Positions 23,671 to 54,982 of a stretch of 64,000 nt of DNA are shown here, in pieces. The position numbers and the translations under genes were made by a program. Position 1 is the stretch's first letter; every line of letters starts with the position of its first letter. A model generated the notes under the pieces. That model searched no databases. It was given only the letters and a program-made list of their open reading frames with translations, and was not told where the DNA came from. Source of the stretch: Dehalococcoidia bacterium (lineage in GTDB: Bacteria; Chloroflexota; Dehalococcoidia; GIF9; AB-539-J10); contig JACUUR010000001.1 in NCBI GenBank assembly GCA_014859205.1, forward strand, positions 4,319-68,318. Direction: 5' to 3'.

Positions 23671-25434
23671 TCAGGAGTTGCTCGGCCACCATCGGTCTTG
23701 ACTCCAAGTCAGAACTACCACAATCGGATCAACAAAGCCCACCCTTACCAGCGTACGAAGAGGCTCGCACCTAGAGATGAAGTCGGCTATGGGAGGACTG
23801 ACGCTGTAGTAGACCGACACGAAACTCGCCCCAAGGCTATTGGGCAGCAGCACCGCGTCCCTGAAGTCCCTCAGGACGTCTATCTCATCGGCAGCATCGG
23901 TACCGTAGACCGCGGTCGAGATGAAACACCCACACCCATTCGGCACACCCGGCGAGGACCCGTAGCCGCCAAACGGTGTCCCGCCCAGGTCGGCCAGGGA
24001 CGGCGTGGTGTCGCTCGTGATCTTCGCCCAGATATACTTGTCGGAGGTATTCACCCAGGTATCCGAACACTGTTTCCACTCTGTGCCATCCCACCACAGC
24101 AGCCTGAAGAATGTCTGGTATAACTGGCTGACGTTTTCCACTTCAGCGTCCGTATAGTGAAGCCTAATCTCAACCTCGGCAACGTCCTGGGTGTCGGCAA
24201 CGCGAACATCGATATACTTGCCCAGTGTGATGAACCGCGAAGGCGCGGCATCCTCAGGATTCTCGGCGTACTTGGCGACGGTCACCGTGGCACCGATTAT
24301 GTCAACCTCAGTCTCAGCCTCCGTATTCAGGGTCCTGGCAGTCGTCGCAGCCGGCGTTCGCATCGTCACCCACACCTCGGTGTCGGCCTGGTCCAAAGCA
24401 TTGACGACACCATCAGCGGTCAACGTCGCTGTCACTACATCGGCCACCACCCAGGGCCGGAAATCCACATTATTGCTGACGGCATTACCCCTGCCGGTGA
24501 CATTCTCTGTAGGGTGAAATGGTCCGGTACCATGCCCCCACCAGTTATGGAGGGCGTCCACCCTCTGGCCTCCATCATTGAAGACGCCCAGCGCAGCGTT
24601 GCCAACGATGTTATTGAAGTGGGCCTCCACGACCGAGCTATCACAGACGTAGATGCCTATGTCATTGTTGTCAGTGATGGTGCACCCTTTCACCTTTGCG
24701 ACCGCCGGTCCCTGCCAATCATCGCCCGGTATCCCCACCACGATTCCCACACCACTGTCCATGATGCCGAAGCCGCCGTTGCCTGTCATTCTTGTGATAG
24801 TACAGCCATCAAGATCGGCCTCCGCATCCCAGATAATAATGCCCGCCATCGAGTTCCTGACCGTCACGTCTGCCAGATTCACCGAGGGCTCGCGTGCGTG
24901 TCCTATGATAGCCACTCCCACACCTAGTTCTGCCCCGAAGGTATTCTCCACCCTCACATTGGCAATTCTGCCTGTGCTGCCAACATAGGCGATGCCCACA
25001 GCCACTTCTCGGTACACGTCCAGTTCGCTGAGTGCAGCTCCGTCAAAGTCAATGCCTCGGATGATGATGTTGTGCGAGTCCTTGACAGCGGCCATGCTCC
25101 ATGCATCTCCTATCGGCCCGCGATCTATCGCGAACCAATCGCCTGCAACGACGGTTGCTCCTGCATCGCCAATTATGCTTATGTTGGTCTTGTTAACCAT
25201 CGAGAAGGCCCCGTAGTTGCCTGCTGCCACCCTGACCATATCGCCATCACGGGCAGCCTCAACAGCATCCTGGATATCGGCAAAGGCGCTGGTCCAACTA
25301 AGGCCCGTCTCATCCCCAGCGCCACCCTCGACGACATACCATGTCGTCGAGCTGGCGGCCGCCGGCAGAGCCGGGACCACTGTCAGGCTCAACACCAGTG
25401 CCAGGACAAATAGGCTAGTGAGTATCTTCTTCAC
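23671..25434 (-). CDS. secreted right-handed parallel beta-helix protein (NosD / pectate-lyase-like repeats) with a conserved C-terminal 'CFI-AAYG' domain
   Basis: GTG start behind AAGGAGAGAGA. Signal peptide MKKILTSLFVLALVLSLTVVPALPAAAS. Beta-helix repeat periodicity. The last ~85 aa are shared with 25826..28105. Confidence 0.8.
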   Translation of the reverse strand: MKKILTSLFVLALVLSLTVVPALPAAASSTTWYVVEGGAGDETGLSWTSAFADIQDAVEAARDGDMVRVAAGNYGAFSMVNKTNISIIGDAGATVVAGDWFAIDRGPIGDAWSMAAVKDSHNIIIRGIDFDGAALSELDVYREVAVGIAYVGSTGRIANVRVENTFGAELGVGVAIIGHAREPSVNLADVTVRNSMAGIIIWDAEADLDGCTITRMTGNGGFGIMDSGVGIVVGIPGDDWQGPAVAKVKGCTITDNNDIGIYVCDSSVVEAHFNNIVGNAALGVFNDGGQRVDALHNWWGHGTGPFHPTENVTGRGNAVSNNVDFRPWVVADVVTATLTADGVVNALDQADTEVWVTMRTPAATTARTLNTEAETEVDIIGATVTVAKYAENPEDAAPSRFITLGKYIDVRVADTQDVAEVEIRLHYTDAEVENVSQLYQTFFRLLWWDGTEWKQCSDTWVNTSDKYIWAKITSDTTPSLADLGGTPFGGYGSSPGVPNGCGCFISTAVYGTDAADEIDVLRDFRDAVLLPNSLGASFVSVYYSVSPPIADFISRCEPLRTLVRVGFVDPIVVVLTWSQDRWWPSNS

Positions 25435-25548
25435 GTCTCTCTCCTTTTGCTTTATCTCTATTGCCTTGTCGCCCCTTCGACCCGGGGCATGGCGGCCTCT
25501 CTATCGCAAATCTCTGACTTCCATCATAGGCATCAACCCGCTGAGAAA

Positions 25549-25575
25549 CGAAAAACCGGCCCGCTGAAGGCCGAT
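25549..25575 (-). promoter_or_regulatory. terminator-like hairpin plus U-tract inside the leader of beta-helix gene 1 (CGGCC-N7-GGCCG then GUUUUUCGUUUCUC), about 120 nt upstream of the start codon
   Basis: Read on the minus strand. An analogous element sits at the equivalent position in the gene 2 leader. Confidence 0.4.
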
Positions 25576-25754
25576 CTGGACATGGACCTCTGAACAGACA
25601 GAGTTCCGCGGAAGCGCGGCTTCCTGTAACTGCACCTTACCTCCCTTCTCCGCGATTGCCTCATTACCACTCCTGGACTGCCGCTCAACGTATGGCGTGA
25701 TCAACAGGCGGGTTTGGCCAGAATTGCGACCACTCGCCAATGAACTAAGAATAT

Positions 25755-25786
25755 GTTAACAGGTAAGTGTTAAGATATTATTAAGG
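25755..25786 (-). promoter_or_regulatory. direct repeats GTTAACA / GTTAAGA / ATTAAGG about 330 nt upstream of beta-helix gene 1
   Basis: AT-rich heptamer repeats in a roughly 60% GC background. Paralogous repeats (GTTAAGA x2) lie upstream of gene 2 at the same distance. Confidence 0.4.
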
Positions 25787-25825
25787 TCTGCGGACGACAA
25801 TGAAGCAGGCGGAGTGCGACCCCGC

Positions 25826-28105
25826 CTAATAGCCCCACTCTGACCAAGAGTGCCGGCTCCAGTTCAAGACAGAGACAATCGGCTCAACAAGACCGGCGCG
25901 CACCACTGCCCTGAGCGGCTCATTGCGGGAGATCAAAAGGGCAACGGGACGACTGACCCTATAGTAGAGGGACACAAACCCTGCACCCAGGCTGTTGGAT
26001 AGTAGAACCTGATCCCTGAACTCCCTCAGAATATCTATCTGATCGGCGGTATCCGTACCGTAGGCTGCGCTGGCGATGAAGCACATCATGCTCCTGAACC
26101 TGGCAGTTATGGAGTAGTCGCCGTCCATGGTGATGGTGGTCACAGGGGCTCTGACATTGGCAATGGTGTCCACGTCACCCGTCCACCTGTCAAACTCGTA
26201 GCCATCATCTGGAGTCGCCTCCAGGCCGACCTCAGTGCCGGGCGCATAGACGAAAGCCCTCTCGCCCGGACTAGTTACCACGCCTCGAGCGTCGCTCGAG
26301 ACCTTCAATGTGCGGAGAGGAGCACCCAGCCAGGGCTGGAAAACCACATCGTTGCTGACGCCATTACCAGTTGCCCCGGGATTGGCTGATGCATGGTACG
26401 GCCCGCTGGCATCACCCCACCAGTTGTCCGTGGCGTCACCAGTAACAGCGCTATCTCTTACTAGCAGCCCGTATTCGCCGTTCTCCACGATGTCGTTGAA
26501 GTTGATCAGCACGGCACTGCCGGCGCCAATGGCTGCCAGATGGATTCCATACTCGTTGTTCTGGCGTATTCTGTTGTACACAATGGTTACAGTGCTGTTG
26601 TCCCCAAGTCCATCGGGACAGGTATCCACGCCGGCAGTAGCACCGGCAAGGATGTTCTCCCTGACGGTGACCTGGCTGCCATCCTCAAGGCAGAGCCTCA
26701 AGGCATAATCACGACCATCGGCCTGGACGGTGAACCCGACGCCATCCCCACCAAGGAAGACTATCTCATCGGTCAAATCCACGCTTACAGAGCCGATGAT
26801 GGCCGTCGCCTCAGCCCCGTTCGCAGACCTGATGGTCAGCGACTTACCGATACCCAAGTCCTCCCTGTATTCGCCCTCCGTCACTACGATTGTATCACCG
26901 GAGGTCGCCAGATCAACGGCGTACTGAATAGAGCCGGTGGGGTCCACTCCCCAGGTCATCGGCTCAGTGCCAGTCTCAGCCCCCAGCCATGGCGAGTAGA
27001 AAACCCTTGCCGAGACGCGATCTCGATTACCGGGTCCCAATCCACCGGGGCCGTCCACATGACCCCACCAGTTACCGATGGCATCCAGATCCAAGGGGCC
27101 ATCGTTACGCACACCCCGCGAGGAATTGCCGAATATTCTATTGAAGCTGACTCTAAGGTCGATCTGCCTATCGTCGGGGTACTCCGGAAGAGGAGGAAAC
27201 ACATATATGCCGTAGAGATTCCCGGTGAAGGTGTTCCCCTCCACGGTCACATTAGTAGAAGGAAACCGGTCGAGACGATGCGCGAAGCTCAGGCCCGCGC
27301 CTTTGACATAACCACTCACTATGTTGTTCCTGACCACGGTATCCAGGAACTGCCCCCTGATGCCTTCTCCTTCGGTGATTACGCTATCCGTGGTCTGGCA
27401 CAGCACCTGGTTGCCTTCCACAAGCGAATACTGGAGATACCCGATTATGCCATACCTCACGTTTACGATCAGGTTGTTCCTGAAGAGCGCTATGGTGGGA
27501 TCAACGGGCCGTAAGGCGCCCGCGTTGATGCCGTACCTGGCGTTTTCAACATAGCAGTACTCGATGGTAGCCTCCTTCGTGAAGGTGAGGCTGAGCCCGA
27601 ACTGTTCGGAGTTCAGGGCGCGTACGTTCCTGACAACGATCTCAGCCGCCAGCGGTTTTCGATCAGGGTCAGGCGTGGACATAGCATGGAAGGTGTTCTG
27701 GATGGTCAACCCGTCGATCACCACCTCACGGTCGGTATCGTTGATTATGCTTATGCCGATCACTTCACGATAGTCTGCGTCAATGATCGTCTCGGGGCCG
27801 GTACGGTCCCGTGCGTCAACTCCGGCCTGGGCACCCTTCAAGGTCAACGATTTGTCGATGACGACATTTTCTTTGTACAGGCCCGCCGCCACCACGACTG
27901 TATCTCTTTCGCCGGCATGATCAATGGCGTACTGTATGGTAGCGAACGCGTCTCCGCCTGGCCCGGTGCCCTTGCCCTGATCATCCTCGCCCAACGAGCC
28001 ATCGACATACCACGTGGAATTGCTGGCCGCCACCGGCACCCCCGGCACCAGGATCGGGTCGCCGACCAGCACGATTAGCAACAGGATACCGAATATCTTC
28101 TTCAT
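25826..28105 (-). CDS. secreted parallel beta-helix protein (two beta-helix regions) with an InlB-B-repeat-like module and the conserved C-terminal 'CFI-AAYG' domain; start taken at ATG 28105 (MKKIFGILLL...) rather than the track start 28180
   Basis: AAGGAGAGAG SD is 3 nt before ATG 28105, followed by a signal peptide. C-terminal 85 aa are about 65% identical to 23671..23925. Confidence 0.8.
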   Translation of the reverse strand: MKKIFGILLLIVLVGDPILVPGVPVAASNSTWYVDGSLGEDDQGKGTGPGGDAFATIQYAIDHAGERDTVVVAAGLYKENVVIDKSLTLKGAQAGVDARDRTGPETIIDADYREVIGISIINDTDREVVIDGLTIQNTFHAMSTPDPDRKPLAAEIVVRNVRALNSEQFGLSLTFTKEATIEYCYVENARYGINAGALRPVDPTIALFRNNLIVNVRYGIIGYLQYSLVEGNQVLCQTTDSVITEGEGIRGQFLDTVVRNNIVSGYVKGAGLSFAHRLDRFPSTNVTVEGNTFTGNLYGIYVFPPLPEYPDDRQIDLRVSFNRIFGNSSRGVRNDGPLDLDAIGNWWGHVDGPGGLGPGNRDRVSARVFYSPWLGAETGTEPMTWGVDPTGSIQYAVDLATSGDTIVVTEGEYREDLGIGKSLTIRSANGAEATAIIGSVSVDLTDEIVFLGGDGVGFTVQADGRDYALRLCLEDGSQVTVRENILAGATAGVDTCPDGLGDNSTVTIVYNRIRQNNEYGIHLAAIGAGSAVLINFNDIVENGEYGLLVRDSAVTGDATDNWWGDASGPYHASANPGATGNGVSNDVVFQPWLGAPLRTLKVSSDARGVVTSPGERAFVYAPGTEVGLEATPDDGYEFDRWTGDVDTIANVRAPVTTITMDGDYSITARFRSMMCFIASAAYGTDTADQIDILREFRDQVLLSNSLGAGFVSLYYRVSRPVALLISRNEPLRAVVRAGLVEPIVSVLNWSRHSWSEWGY

Positions 28106-28210
28106 CTCTCTCCTTATAGACGCTCCTTCTAATCGCTCTTCGTCACTAGGCCGGAGACATGGTGACCTTTCCTCACACAACCCGCACTCTCTCAGACATC
28201 AAGCCGCCGA

Positions 28211-28240
28211 CAACACAGAACCGGCCCCTGGGGGACCGGT
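28211..28240 (-). promoter_or_regulatory. terminator-like hairpin (CCGGUCCCC / GGGGCCGG) plus U-rich tract in the leader of beta-helix gene 2
   Basis: Same position and downstream GG(C/G)TTGATG(C/T)CT box as in the gene 1 leader. Confidence 0.35.
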
Positions 28241-28431
28241 CTCATCGTGAACAGCTCCCGCGCGAGTAGCCCTGTGAAGCGGCCACCCTGCAACCCCTGT
28301 GATAGGTCTTCCTTGCAATTCGCTCGCATTGGCTCCCCGATTACCAGTGGGCACGTGGCATAGGCAAAAGCCGATATCTCCCAGGACATCCATAAGTCAA
28401 CAGGGAACAACAAATATGGTAGCATCCAACT

Positions 28432-28449
28432 GTTAAGATTCTGTTAAGA
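28432..28449 (-). promoter_or_regulatory. direct repeat GTTAAGA-N4-GTTAAGA about 335 nt upstream of beta-helix gene 2
   Basis: Matches the repeat upstream of gene 1. Candidate transcription-factor site. Confidence 0.4.
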
Positions 28450-28623
28450 CTTCGGTGGTCGCCAGCATAAGACCCTGCCCGCGATCCGTGACAGCACCAC
28501 ACACGCTATCGACCTTGCCTGCTCGGGCAAGATGATCTGCCCTCGATCCAGGAAGTGATTCCGGCCCCTATCACGCGCCGGCGTCTACCATAACACATCT
28601 GCCGCTTTTTCTCCGCAGACGGC

Positions 28624-28664
28624 TTGTTTTTCACCATATTTAGTGGTACAATGGCATCATGCCA
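28624..28664 (+). promoter_or_regulatory. nrdR promoter TTGTTT-N17-TACAAT with a candidate NrdR box TCACCATATTTAGTGG (28631-28646) in the spacer and a perfect inverted repeat TGGCATcATGCCA (28652-28664) at the start site
   Basis: The NrdR box matches 12 of 16 positions of the published consensus acaCwAtATaTwGtgt. The palindromes are seen directly in the sequence. Confidence 0.55.
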
Positions 28665-28683
28665 CAATTCCTGGGAGGAATCG

Positions 28684-29208
28684 GTGAATTGCCCTAATTG
28701 CGGCAGGCAGGATTCAGGTGTGGTGGATTCGCGAAGCCTGGGCGACGTCGTGAGACGACGAAGGAAATGCCTTGCCTGCGGCGCTCGCTTCACTACTCAT
28801 GAACGGGTACATGTGCACGATCTATTCGTTATCAAGAAGGATGGGCGGCGTGAGGACTTCAGCCGGGAGAAGCTCTCCCTTGGGATTCGCAGGGCTTGTG
28901 AGAAGCGTCCGCTTCCCACGGGCGCCATAGACAAGCTTGTGGAGAGCATCGAGGCTGAGCTATATAAGATGGGTAGGGGCGAGGTCTCCAGTGCCCACAT
29001 AGGCGATCTGGTCATGGAAGGATTGCGGAAGCTGGACCACATTGCTTACATACGGTTTGCCAGCGTCTATCGCACGTTTGCTGATATCGGCGATCTGAAA
29101 CAAGAGGTGGACAGCCTGGCCGAACGGGGAGAACTGACACCGACGAATCAACTCCCCCTGCCCTCCTGTGAGACGGTGAGTGCTCTAGCTGGTCGTAAGA
29201 GAAGGTAG
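28684..29208 (+). CDS. nrdR: transcriptional repressor NrdR (zinc ribbon + ATP-cone); start at GTG 28684 giving MNCPNCG..., whereas the track ORF starts at a TTG inside the promoter
   Basis: CPxCG...CxxCG zinc ribbon at the N-terminus, RRR motif, ATP-cone. GGGAGGAA SD is 5 nt upstream of the GTG. Confidence 0.85.
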   Translation: MNCPNCGRQDSGVVDSRSLGDVVRRRRKCLACGARFTTHERVHVHDLFVIKKDGRREDFSREKLSLGIRRACEKRPLPTGAIDKLVESIEAELYKMGRGEVSSAHIGDLVMEGLRKLDHIAYIRFASVYRTFADIGDLKQEVDSLAERGELTPTNQLPLPSCETVSALAGRKRR

Positions 29209-52789: not shown

Positions 52790-54982
52790 TCAACGTTTCT
52801 TCCTTGGTGTAACCCTCCCGGCGCTCTTCCTCTTCGCCGAACGCGCTTTCTTCGCACCGGGCCCTGTCATCCGGCTGGTTCTACGTCTGCGCAACAGAAA
52901 GACGACCAGCCCGGCTACCACCGCTCCCATTATCGCGCCCACCAACGGCCACTTAACTGCCGCGGCCTCAGCAAAATTGGCCATGACCTCGTAATCGCCT
53001 TGCATCGTGATGGTGGTTGCAGCGGCCCCAACACTGGCGACCGTGGCCACATCGCCGCTCCAGTTGACAAAGCGAAAACCCCGGTCAGGCTCGGCAAGCA
53101 ACTGAACCGTCAGCCCGGCAGTGTAGGTGAAGGTGCCCTCACCATGAGTGATCACCGAACCGCCACCGCTGCTGGAGACGGTAAGGGAATACTCTACAAC
53201 ACCGAGGTCCCAGTCGGTAAGCTCCATCTCAACACCCGCAGAAACCAGCGAGCCGTCGGATCTGATCCCCACCGTTTGATATCCGCCCGCCGCTACCCCG
53301 ACGATGTCCGTCCAGGCATCGACATTGCACTGCCCCCAGTCGTTGTCTCCCACTGCGACCACAGTGCCGTCGGGCCTCAGGCCCACAGTGTGATAGCCAC
53401 CGCTCGCCACCCCCACGATGTCCATCCAGTCACCGACATCACACTGCCCGTAGGAATTGTATCCCGTCGCAACCACGCTGCCGTCGGACCTGAGCCCCAC
53501 TGTATGTGCGGCGCCTGCCGCCACCCCCACTACATCCGCCCAGTCATGCACGTCACGCTGCCCATGATAATTGTCTCCCACAGCAACCACGGTGCCGTCG
53601 CTCTTAACTCCAACCGTGTGATAGCCACCGGCCACCACCCGGACTATGTCCATCCAGTCCCCGACATCGCACTGCCCGTAGAAGTCATGTCCTCTCGCAA
53701 CCACGGTGCCGTCAGACCGCAGGCCCACAGTGTGTGCAGCGCCTGCCGCTATCATCTCGATCTCCCTCCAGTCCGCCACATCAGATTGTCCTGCCACATC
53801 ATCTCCAACGGCCACTGCAGTGCCGTCGGTCTTGAACCCCACCGTGTGATAACCACCGGCCGCAATTCCTTTAATGCCCGCCCAATCGGCAACATCGCAC
53901 TGCCCGTGGTAGTTATATCCCGTTGCGACCACGGTGCCGTCGGACCTGAGCCCCACGGTGTGCGAGAACACTGTGGCGACCTCCACCATATCCATCCAGT
54001 CGCCTACATCACCCTGCCCATGGTACCTCTCTCCCGCAGCGACGACTGTCCCATCAGATTTCAGCCCCACTGTATGACGCTCACCTGCCGCTATCGAGAT
54101 CATCCCACTCCACTCCTCTACATCACCTTGCCCTACTACGTTATCACCCACCGCCACCGCCCCACCGTCAATCTTGAGCCCCACAGTGTGATAACCACCC
54201 GCCACAACCTGCATGATGTTCGTCCAGTCCGCCACGTCGCTCTGTCTCCAGGCGTTATCTCCGACCGCGACTACTCCGCCGTCGATATTAAGCCCCACCG
54301 TGTGATAACCACCTGCGGCAATCCCAACGATGTCGGTCCAGTCGTCCACATCACACTGCCTCCAGTCGTTGTCTCCCACCGCAACCACTTTGCCGTCGGC
54401 ATCAAGCCCCACAGTATGCGCCCCGCCTGCCGCAACCTCCACGATGCCCGCCCAATCGGCAACATCGCACTGTCCGTAGTAGTTGTGTCCCACTGCGACG
54501 ACAGTTCCGTCAGATTTCAGGCCCACAGTGTGACGCTCGCCTGCAGCGACCCGGACAATGTCCGTCCAGTCGCCCACATCGCACTGCCCGGCCAGATTCT
54601 CTCCCGCTGCCACCACGGTACCGTCGGCCTTAACACCAACCGTATGATAGCTACCGGCGGCGACATGGGTTATGTCCGTCCAGTCCCCCACATCGCACTG
54701 CCCGTGCTGATTATGTCCCACTGCGACCACCGTGCCGTCGGACCTGAGCCCCACCGTGTGGCCCTCGCCTGCGGCCACCATAGGCGTTACCTGCCCCTCA
54801 GCCACAGCCAGTACCACTGTAGGCGCGGTGCCAGCGGCGTCCACACGCTCAGCAACTATCACCCTGCTATCCACCAGGAACGCGGTCCCTGATGAAGCTC
54901 CTGCTGCCGAAGCAGGAAGAACTGCGCTGAACATGAGCACCACCGAGATCACGAATAATAGGAGCATCGTTCTACTTCTCAT
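52790..54982 (-). CDS. secreted RCC1-repeat (beta-propeller) protein with an InlB-B-repeat-like module, C-terminal TM anchor and polybasic tail
   Basis: Signal peptide. About 14 tandem repeats of the ~38-aa unit GxxHTVGLxxDGTVVAxGxNxxGQCDVxDWxDIV. C-terminal hydrophobic helix then RRRRTSRM...RKKR. Confidence 0.8.
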   Translation of the reverse strand: MRSRTMLLLFVISVVLMFSAVLPASAAGASSGTAFLVDSRVIVAERVDAAGTAPTVVLAVAEGQVTPMVAAGEGHTVGLRSDGTVVAVGHNQHGQCDVGDWTDITHVAAGSYHTVGVKADGTVVAAGENLAGQCDVGDWTDIVRVAAGERHTVGLKSDGTVVAVGHNYYGQCDVADWAGIVEVAAGGAHTVGLDADGKVVAVGDNDWRQCDVDDWTDIVGIAAGGYHTVGLNIDGGVVAVGDNAWRQSDVADWTNIMQVVAGGYHTVGLKIDGGAVAVGDNVVGQGDVEEWSGMISIAAGERHTVGLKSDGTVVAAGERYHGQGDVGDWMDMVEVATVFSHTVGLRSDGTVVATGYNYHGQCDVADWAGIKGIAAGGYHTVGFKTDGTAVAVGDDVAGQSDVADWREIEMIAAGAAHTVGLRSDGTVVARGHDFYGQCDVGDWMDIVRVVAGGYHTVGVKSDGTVVAVGDNYHGQRDVHDWADVVGVAAGAAHTVGLRSDGSVVATGYNSYGQCDVGDWMDIVGVASGGYHTVGLRPDGTVVAVGDNDWGQCNVDAWTDIVGVAAGGYQTVGIRSDGSLVSAGVEMELTDWDLGVVEYSLTVSSSGGGSVITHGEGTFTYTAGLTVQLLAEPDRGFRFVNWSGDVATVASVGAAATTITMQGDYEVMANFAEAAAVKWPLVGAIMGAVVAGLVVFLLRRRRTSRMTGPGAKKARSAKRKSAGRVTPRKKR
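52960..54800 (-). repeat. tandem ~114-bp coding repeats (RCC1-like blades) inside 52790..54982
   Basis: Recurrent DNA strings such as ccgtcggacctgagccccac(c/t)gtgtg every ~114 bp. Confidence 0.7.

Follow-up and report, generated by a model that had tools for sequence, protein, structure and literature searches.

A conserved promoter and leader upstream of beta-helix surface-protein genes in Dehalococcoidia: a possible ribosome-coupled transcription attenuator

The Dehalococcoidia are abundant and mostly uncultured bacteria in which gene regulation is almost unstudied. A 64-kb stretch of DNA from one of them (64,000 nucleotides, hereafter the window) contains two neighbouring paralogous genes on the minus strand, here called gene 2 and gene 1, each with a long intergenic region in front of it, and the question raised by this locus is what these regions contribute to the expression of the genes that follow. 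The first-pass annotation, made from the letters of the window, had described the region upstream of gene 2 as the second copy of an architecture shared by two genes, and the same order of elements was indeed found before both; each of the four elements that it listed lies where it had been placed, or at most 1-2 nt away. The features discussed here are as follows, in the direction of transcription.

28431..28449 (28448..28431), minus strand: direct repeat CTTAACA-GAAT-CTTAACA, arranged 7-4-7 with 11-bp periodicity; the candidate activator-site sequence in the promoter is CTTAACAGAATCTTAACA
28416..28424, minus strand: predicted extended -10 element TGcTACCAT, from the sequence and a comparison of 19 sites
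28330..28409, minus strand: predicted 5' untranslated part of the leader
28333..28338, minus strand: putative Shine-Dalgarno sequence GGGGAG of the leader ORF, a GAGGAG-like motif in the alignment
28192..28329, minus strand: leader ORF of 45 codons plus TGA (MRANCKEDLSQGLQGGRFTGLLARELFTMRPVPQGPVLCCRRLDV), which reads through the hairpin
28219..28241, minus strand: intrinsic-terminator hairpin GACCGGUCCC-CCA-GGGGCCGGUU, from a terminator scan and folding
28207..28218, minus strand: U-rich tract (CUGUGUUGUCGG) after the hairpin
28194..28208, minus strand: conserved block GGCGGCUUGAUGUCU, containing the leader ORF stop codon and the ATG of a mini-ORF
28106..28115, minus strand: A-rich Shine-Dalgarno region (AAGGAGAGAG) of gene 2, followed by ATG
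25826..28105, minus strand: gene 2, encoding a 759-aa secreted protein
25435..25785, minus strand: the paralogous architecture in the gene 1 leader, with all elements repeated (repeat 25785..25768; TGtTAACAT 25761..25753; ORF of 43 codons 25664..25533; terminator 25577..25553)
23671..25434, minus strand: gene 1, the paralog downstream of gene 2

The product of gene 2 has a signal peptide, right-handed beta-helix/NosD repeats, an InlB B-repeat domain and a CFI-box-CTERM domain; that of gene 1 has a signal peptide, right-handed beta-helix/NosD repeats and, as in gene 2, a C-terminal CFI-box-CTERM domain (NF041770). The gene 2 protein is identical to one from a Dehalococcoidia metagenome-assembled genome, no sequence homolog of it was found among solved structures, and the literature yielded nothing usable on CFI-box-CTERM or on S-layer or beta-helix proteins of Dehalococcoidia. 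On the sole basis of domain content, both products are probably major envelope proteins. Another large protein in the window (52790-54982, minus strand; 730 aa) has nine RCC1 repeats and an InlB B-repeat (Flg_new_2) domain that is 49% identical to that of gene 2 over 78 residues; the leader profile has no match near its gene.

Divergent from gene 2 on its upstream side are nrdR and a ribonucleotide reductase gene, and downstream of the gene pair is a pyruvate:ferredoxin oxidoreductase operon; the gene order around the pair, from the nrdR side to the oxidoreductase operon, is kept in relatives. A palindrome, CACCATATTTAGTGGT (28632-28652, plus strand), is located upstream of nrdR and overlaps a -10-like sequence, TGGTACAAT; it resembles an NrdR box, which would mean autoregulation of nrdR. 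The nrdR ORF is listed from TTG 28624, and its probable start is GTG 28684, since the zinc-ribbon match begins only at residue 22. A terminator-like hairpin (TAGGCGGGGTCGCACTCCGCCTG plus CTTCATTGTC; 25806-25828, minus strand) overlaps the stop codon of gene 2, and the repeat promoter of gene 1 starts 20 nt past it. Thus, the two paralogs appear to be separate transcription units in the source genome, each with its own copy of the leader.

Related leaders were collected by three routes. When species-representative genomes were scanned for the C-terminal domain, five Dehalococcoidia loci came up, all carrying the genes as a tandem pair, along with distant CFI-box proteins from other phyla; the N-terminal region, used against metagenomes, added 21 loci, and 12 more came from exact look-ups, both of close homologs and of leader ORFs that had been called. 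The protein search found 275 homologs at E <= 1e-20, and 120 of these were listed. The final alignment had 32 full leaders, window copies included, after earlier subsets of 23 and 28 (loci L033 and L038, cited below, come from JGI 3300076001). The first-pass annotation had proposed that the architecture would be conserved in related genomes, and this was borne out by 30 further leaders with the same element order in front of orthologs and paralogs. The leader profile matches 25 of the related loci fetched and only two places in the 64-kb window, and has no match in the non-Dehalococcoidia loci that were fetched. Two Dehalococcoidia loci, L015 and L024, have an entirely different leader in front of genes of this family: there a perfect TTGACA-N17-TATAAT promoter precedes ~350 nt of unrelated leader (L015 1450-1866; L024 2500-2896), with a small conserved hairpin, GG(G/A)TTT(C/T)GG-AAAAA-(C/T)CGAAC, directly before the ribosome-binding site. 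The same GG(G/A)TTT(C/T)GG hairpin was noted in the short leaders of second genes at two other loci (L003 8390-8432; L004 8300-8340).

The most upstream element was examined for its place in the promoter. It had been reported as GTTAAGA-N4-GTTAAGA at 28432-28449, and GTTAAGATTCTGTTAAGA is present there on the plus strand, which is the strand opposite the gene; the gene strand is the minus strand, on which the repeat reads as listed above. The repeat pattern occurs twice in 64 kb, against 0.11-0.13 occurrences expected, and both occurrences are upstream of the paralogous genes, a coincidence that is therefore more than chance. In 298 kb comprising the window and the related loci, the degenerate pattern CTTAAYA-N4-YTTAAYA was found at 19 sites, all in the orientation of the gene; the distance from the repeat to a TAnnAT sequence is exactly 9 nt in 19 of 19, and TGn mostly precedes the TAnnAT. 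From the position of this -10 element, we infer that transcription starts at ~28409, about 7 nt beyond it. Ten related leaders have TTGAC...TGnTATAAT instead of the repeat, followed by the same leader, and one (L011) carries both the repeat and the TTGAC-type promoter. Because a TTGAC-type promoter can substitute for it in ten leaders, the repeat is a separable module of the promoter and not part of the RNA. The repeat is thus conserved, as had been proposed, although it belongs to a promoter exchangeable for a sigma-70-type one and falls outside the transcribed leader in which it had been included.

The repeat itself was considered as a -35 element and rejected, as its spacing to the -10 element is 9 or 20 nt, neither of which suits sigma-70; no hexamer was found in the sequence at a spacing of 16-18 nt from the -10. 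Two direct repeats with 11-bp periodicity that take the place of a -35 element are a geometry typical of winged-helix activators of the OmpR/PhoB type, and the repeat is probably a binding module for an activator. PHO boxes are likewise direct repeats with 11-bp periodicity (PMC11870197; PMC3978041), and the layout of 7 + 4 + 7 repeats replacing the -35, 9 bp from the -10, is like that of PHO boxes and of OmpR/PhoB family sites, including those of the SARP proteins. The hexamer TTAACA of the leader fits the half-site of Bacillus subtilis PhoP, TT(A/T/C)ACA (PMC11870197), whereas the repeat of Escherichia coli, CTGTCAT, differs from it in sequence. PHO boxes of B. subtilis have four repeats and the leader site has two, the 11-nt units upstream failing to match. 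Because only two repeats are present, and because a Pfam scan of 20 ORFs of the window showed no response regulator or OmpR-family gene, membership in a Pho regulon is not claimed. In one sub-lineage, GAGATTCTCTCAC, which contains an inverted GAGA/TCTC, adjoins the direct repeat on its upstream side (L003 5842-5856, and the same place in L004, L012, L014, L018, L019 and L028); it is absent from the window copies.

Within the predicted transcript, the element TGGTAATCGGGGAGCCAATGCGAG reported by the first-pass annotation was located at 28346..28323 on the minus strand, and the string TGGTAAT...CCAATGCGAG, also real, can now be read more precisely as the place where a small leader ORF starts, with a putative ribosome-binding site followed by the start codon. 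This ORF was found in 32 of 32 leaders with its start at the same aligned position, and in nearly all of them a GAGGAG-like motif ends 3-5 nt before the ATG or GTG. Most leaders have 89 nt from the start of the ORF to the stem of the hairpin (range 79-96), and this spacing holds in lineages whose sequence has otherwise diverged past recognition. From the start codon to 10 nt before the stem there are no in-frame stops in 28 of 28 leaders, compared with 56 stops in frame +1 and 26 in frame +2; the chance of an open frame per shuffled sequence is 0.25-0.53. Frame-shifting indels are present in L011, L027, L038 and the P0125/P0132 class, and the frame is still open to the hairpin.

The far end of the ORF is variable. 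Its length in relatives ranges from 26 to 77 codons: the 26-codon forms end at a TAA 7-11 nt before the core stem, those of 33-63 codons end inside or past the hairpin in two different frames, the 77-codon ORF of L033 has a stop that overlaps the main start codon (TGATG), and in L037 the leader ORF is fused in frame with the main gene. No leader has the stop more than 11 nt before the core stem, and in the window copy of gene 2 it is 46 nt past the 5' base of the stem. The peptide is equally inconstant. Its N-terminus, MTEWWGKEITGSDEAxxLAGHL, is recognisably conserved in the main lineage, and the window peptides resemble the main-lineage consensus in position only; across lineages the sequence and length vary, with C-termini in three different frames. 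No clear purifying selection on amino acids was found: differences among close relatives are mostly non-synonymous, those at codon position 1 are fewer than at positions 2 and 3, which are equal, and by synonymous counts the frame of the ORF does no better than frame +2. As no selection is seen at the level of the peptide, the evidence for translation consists of the Shine-Dalgarno sequence, the start codon and the openness of the frame. What appears to be selected is an open, translatable frame that reaches the hairpin, and not a particular peptide.

A profile search found 18 clusters of leader ORFs that had been called in metagenomes, all as 'hypothetical protein'. Public 'hypothetical proteins' of 42-77 aa correspond to the leader ORF (L033 3768-4001; P0121-P0138), and their annotated N-termini are probably artefacts, since the calls often extend to an upstream ATG in the -10 element of the promoter. 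A segment near the 5' end of the leader, GUUCCCUG, can pair with the ribosome-binding site of the leader ORF in the minimum-free-energy fold, with a z-score of 0.03 that is not significant. Helices that would sequester the ribosome-binding site in relatives show 74-81% pairing and few compensatory changes, and folds of single sequences do no better than those of shuffled ones.

The hairpin that the ORF reaches had been placed at about 28221-28239 and was found as GACCGGTCCC/GGGGCCGGTT at 28241..28219, followed by CTGTGTTGTC. Its 10-bp stem, 7 pairs of which are G-C, closes a loop of 3 nt; the hairpin folds at -19.2 kcal/mol with flanks and is followed on the minus strand by CUGUGUUGUC. The U-rich tract passes the scan criterion (at least 5 T in 8); it is poor in the window copy (UUCUGUGUUGUC) and strong in most relatives (UUUUGUGUUUUU). 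Folding of the alignments of 23 and of 32 leaders with RNAalifold gave the hairpin as the sole consensus structure, 93-94% paired, with compensatory changes, on both sides, at 6 pairs. The hairpin is also the most conserved segment of the leader (64% identity, against 46% for the coding sequences), and in the terminator scan the gene 1 hairpin is at a matching relative position. The hairpin and U tract together are an intrinsic (Rho-independent) terminator by these features, at which termination is predicted.

Beyond the terminator is a conserved block of ~110 nt with 62% identity between paralog types. Just past the terminator is the element GGCGGCTTGATGTCT, which the first-pass annotation had put at about 28195-28207 and which occupies 28208..28194 on the minus strand; the block GGCGGCUUGAUGUCU here may pair with AAGGUCACC at 28169..28161. 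This candidate helix, helix 5 (GGUGAUGCUU with AAGCCGCU), is 89% paired with changes mostly one-sided. A second mini-ORF of 8-10 codons (28173-28199, minus strand) has its ATG within the GGGTGATGC block (alignment columns ~235-265) and would encode MSERVRVV in the window and, in most relatives, MLVELKVVR; 27 of the 32 leaders have the ATG, substitutions are mostly conservative, and the same columns also form a candidate hairpin. A scan of the interval between the terminator and gene 2 found no promoter-like site. A natural deletion variant was noted before the second gene of L038 (6290-6512): it lacks the leader ORF together with the hairpin's 5' arm, and the repeat promoter with its -10 is joined almost directly to the U tract and downstream block. 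These observations point to a single promoter whose transcript reaches the main gene by way of the terminator.

Taken as a whole, the region would tentatively be read as a promoter and 5' leader of ~300 nt acting as a ribosome-coupled transcription attenuator of a beta-helix surface-protein gene, a reading to which we give slightly less than even weight. A candidate activator would switch on the promoter by binding the 7-bp direct repeats 9 bp upstream of the extended -10. Some 80 nt into the transcript, the Shine-Dalgarno sequence and start codon would open the small ORF, and RNA polymerase would meet the intrinsic terminator ~89 nt past that start codon, the ORF never ending earlier than 7-11 nt before the stem. 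A ribosome close behind the polymerase would occupy or abut the 5' arm of the hairpin while the U tract was being made; with the ribosome in place there would be no termination and the polymerase would continue into the main gene, and with no ribosome there the hairpin would form and the transcript would end after ~200 nt. A closely coupled ribosome is able to prevent intrinsic terminator hairpins from forming, as at pyrL/pyrBI (PMC5021804). Since the ORF always reaches the terminator, translating ribosomes probably decide whether the gene is transcribed. Several observations count against the attenuator reading or its promoter part: a ribosome terminating in the 26-codon forms would get no further than the base of the hairpin, the window copy has the weak U tract described above, the peptide shows no clear amino-acid selection, the 20 window ORFs scanned include no cognate regulator gene, the site has two repeats where B. 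subtilis boxes have four, and L015 and L024 have a different leader.

Three other explanations were weighed, and all of them leave one point unexplained, namely why the frame stays open, at a constant distance from the terminator, in spite of frameshifts. The first of these, that the region is a long stabilising or processing leader of the mRNA of a highly expressed surface protein, with an ORF that is incidental or an aid to ribosome loading and with little regulated termination, is unlikely. Long stabilising 5' untranslated regions are found on S-layer genes of other bacteria, and it would agree with such a role that the block after the terminator is conserved and partly structured (helix 5 and the 62% identity), that the main ribosome-binding region is A-rich, that the U tract of the window copy is weak, and that the L038 deletion variant retains only the downstream block. 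The strong U tract of most relatives is nonetheless the signature of a terminator and not of a 5' stabiliser, the hairpin lies ~170 nt into the transcript, and a stabilising function accounts for neither the open frame up to the hairpin nor the constant 89-nt spacing.

A more doubtful explanation is an attenuator that answers to a small ligand or to an RNA-binding protein acting in trans, as with riboswitches or antitermination proteins, in which a purine-rich segment would be the sensor and the ORF a by-product. A conserved purine-rich block (GAGGAGCA.AAGUGACAGAAUGGUGGGGAAAAGAGAUUACGGGGAG) does precede the terminator, and the lack of clear amino-acid selection on the peptide would be expected of a by-product. 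Yet Rfam 15 gave no relevant match for the window at the gathering score, for 25300-28700, which includes the window leaders, even at E <= 10, or for four related loci at E <= 1. Upstream of the terminator, RNAalifold and the stack scan gave no helix with covariation, and no antiterminator pairing was supported when the alignments were folded without the 3' arm or scanned exhaustively for column stacks, the other candidates of that scan being U-tract/purine pairings of no value. Moreover, the purine-rich block is not conserved in the lineage of the window, where the 89-nt spacing, the open frame and the start codon with its Shine-Dalgarno sequence are all kept.

An independent small gene, for a peptide of 26-77 aa or an RNA of ~170 nt, with the surface gene expressed by leak-through or from an unrecognised promoter, is the least probable of the three: the unit is complete with promoter, ribosome-binding site, ORF and terminator, gene callers have called the ORF (the 18 protein clusters) and its N-terminus is conserved in the main lineage, but the peptide varies in sequence and length to the point that the window copies share with the main lineage the position of the ORF only, the differences between close relatives are mostly non-synonymous, the ORF is fused to (L037) or overlaps (L033) the main gene, a scan of the interval from the terminator to gene 2 found no promoter-like site, and the unit was found solely directly upstream of the CFI-box-CTERM surface-protein family.

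The ribosome-coupled reading, if true, would amount to indirect genomic evidence of physical coupling of transcription and translation in the Chloroflexota, the argument for close following by the ribosome being that a frame is kept open up to a terminator despite frameshifts. With somewhat less confidence than the reading itself, it is suggested that these leaders form a new, Dehalococcoidia-specific family of translation-coupled attenuators, in which an ORF conserved only in its openness is held ~89 nt from a terminator, and which may gate major CFI-box-CTERM surface proteins behind an OmpR/PhoB-type promoter. The leader supplies a concrete promoter architecture and a candidate regulator-binding motif for an uncultured lineage, together with a testable attenuator candidate for probable major proteins of the cell envelope, and the 'hypothetical proteins' of 42-77 aa in metagenomes would be explained as leader ORFs and not as ordinary genes.

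The proposed attenuator was compared with known systems that end a leader in an intrinsic terminator. Riboswitches with terminator platforms are similar in having a conserved leader that ends in this way before the regulated gene, and differ in that the Dehalococcoidia leader has a translated-looking conserved ORF where the aptamer would be; an aptamer was considered and rejected, as RNAalifold on full and partial alignments and the stack scan support the terminator only. The trp, his and leu attenuators resemble the present leader in placing a short ORF, with its ribosome-binding site, ahead of an intrinsic terminator, whereas the Dehalococcoidia ORF reaches the terminator itself. A regulatory codon run of the trp type is not conserved: tandem Trp codons are present in some leaders and absent from both window copies and several lineages.

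The pyrBI operon of E. coli, with its leader ORF pyrL, is alike in that the leader ORF is translated up to or through an intrinsic terminator, with no antiterminator hairpin (PMC5021804). There is no sequence relationship between the two. The pyrBI operon is biosynthetic, the Dehalococcoidia leader precedes a gene for a secreted surface protein, and the Dehalococcoidia ORF, unlike pyrL, ends at widely varying places, upstream of the hairpin, within it or beyond it, or continues as a fusion with the main gene. No obvious U-rich run that could serve as a UTP-sensitive pause region of the pyrBI kind was seen in the alignment upstream of the hairpin. The likeness is one of logic, here read from sequence alone: in both, the ribosome itself would physically block the terminator. 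As this class of mechanism is already known, the Dehalococcoidia leaders would represent a new, uncatalogued family within it and no new principle.
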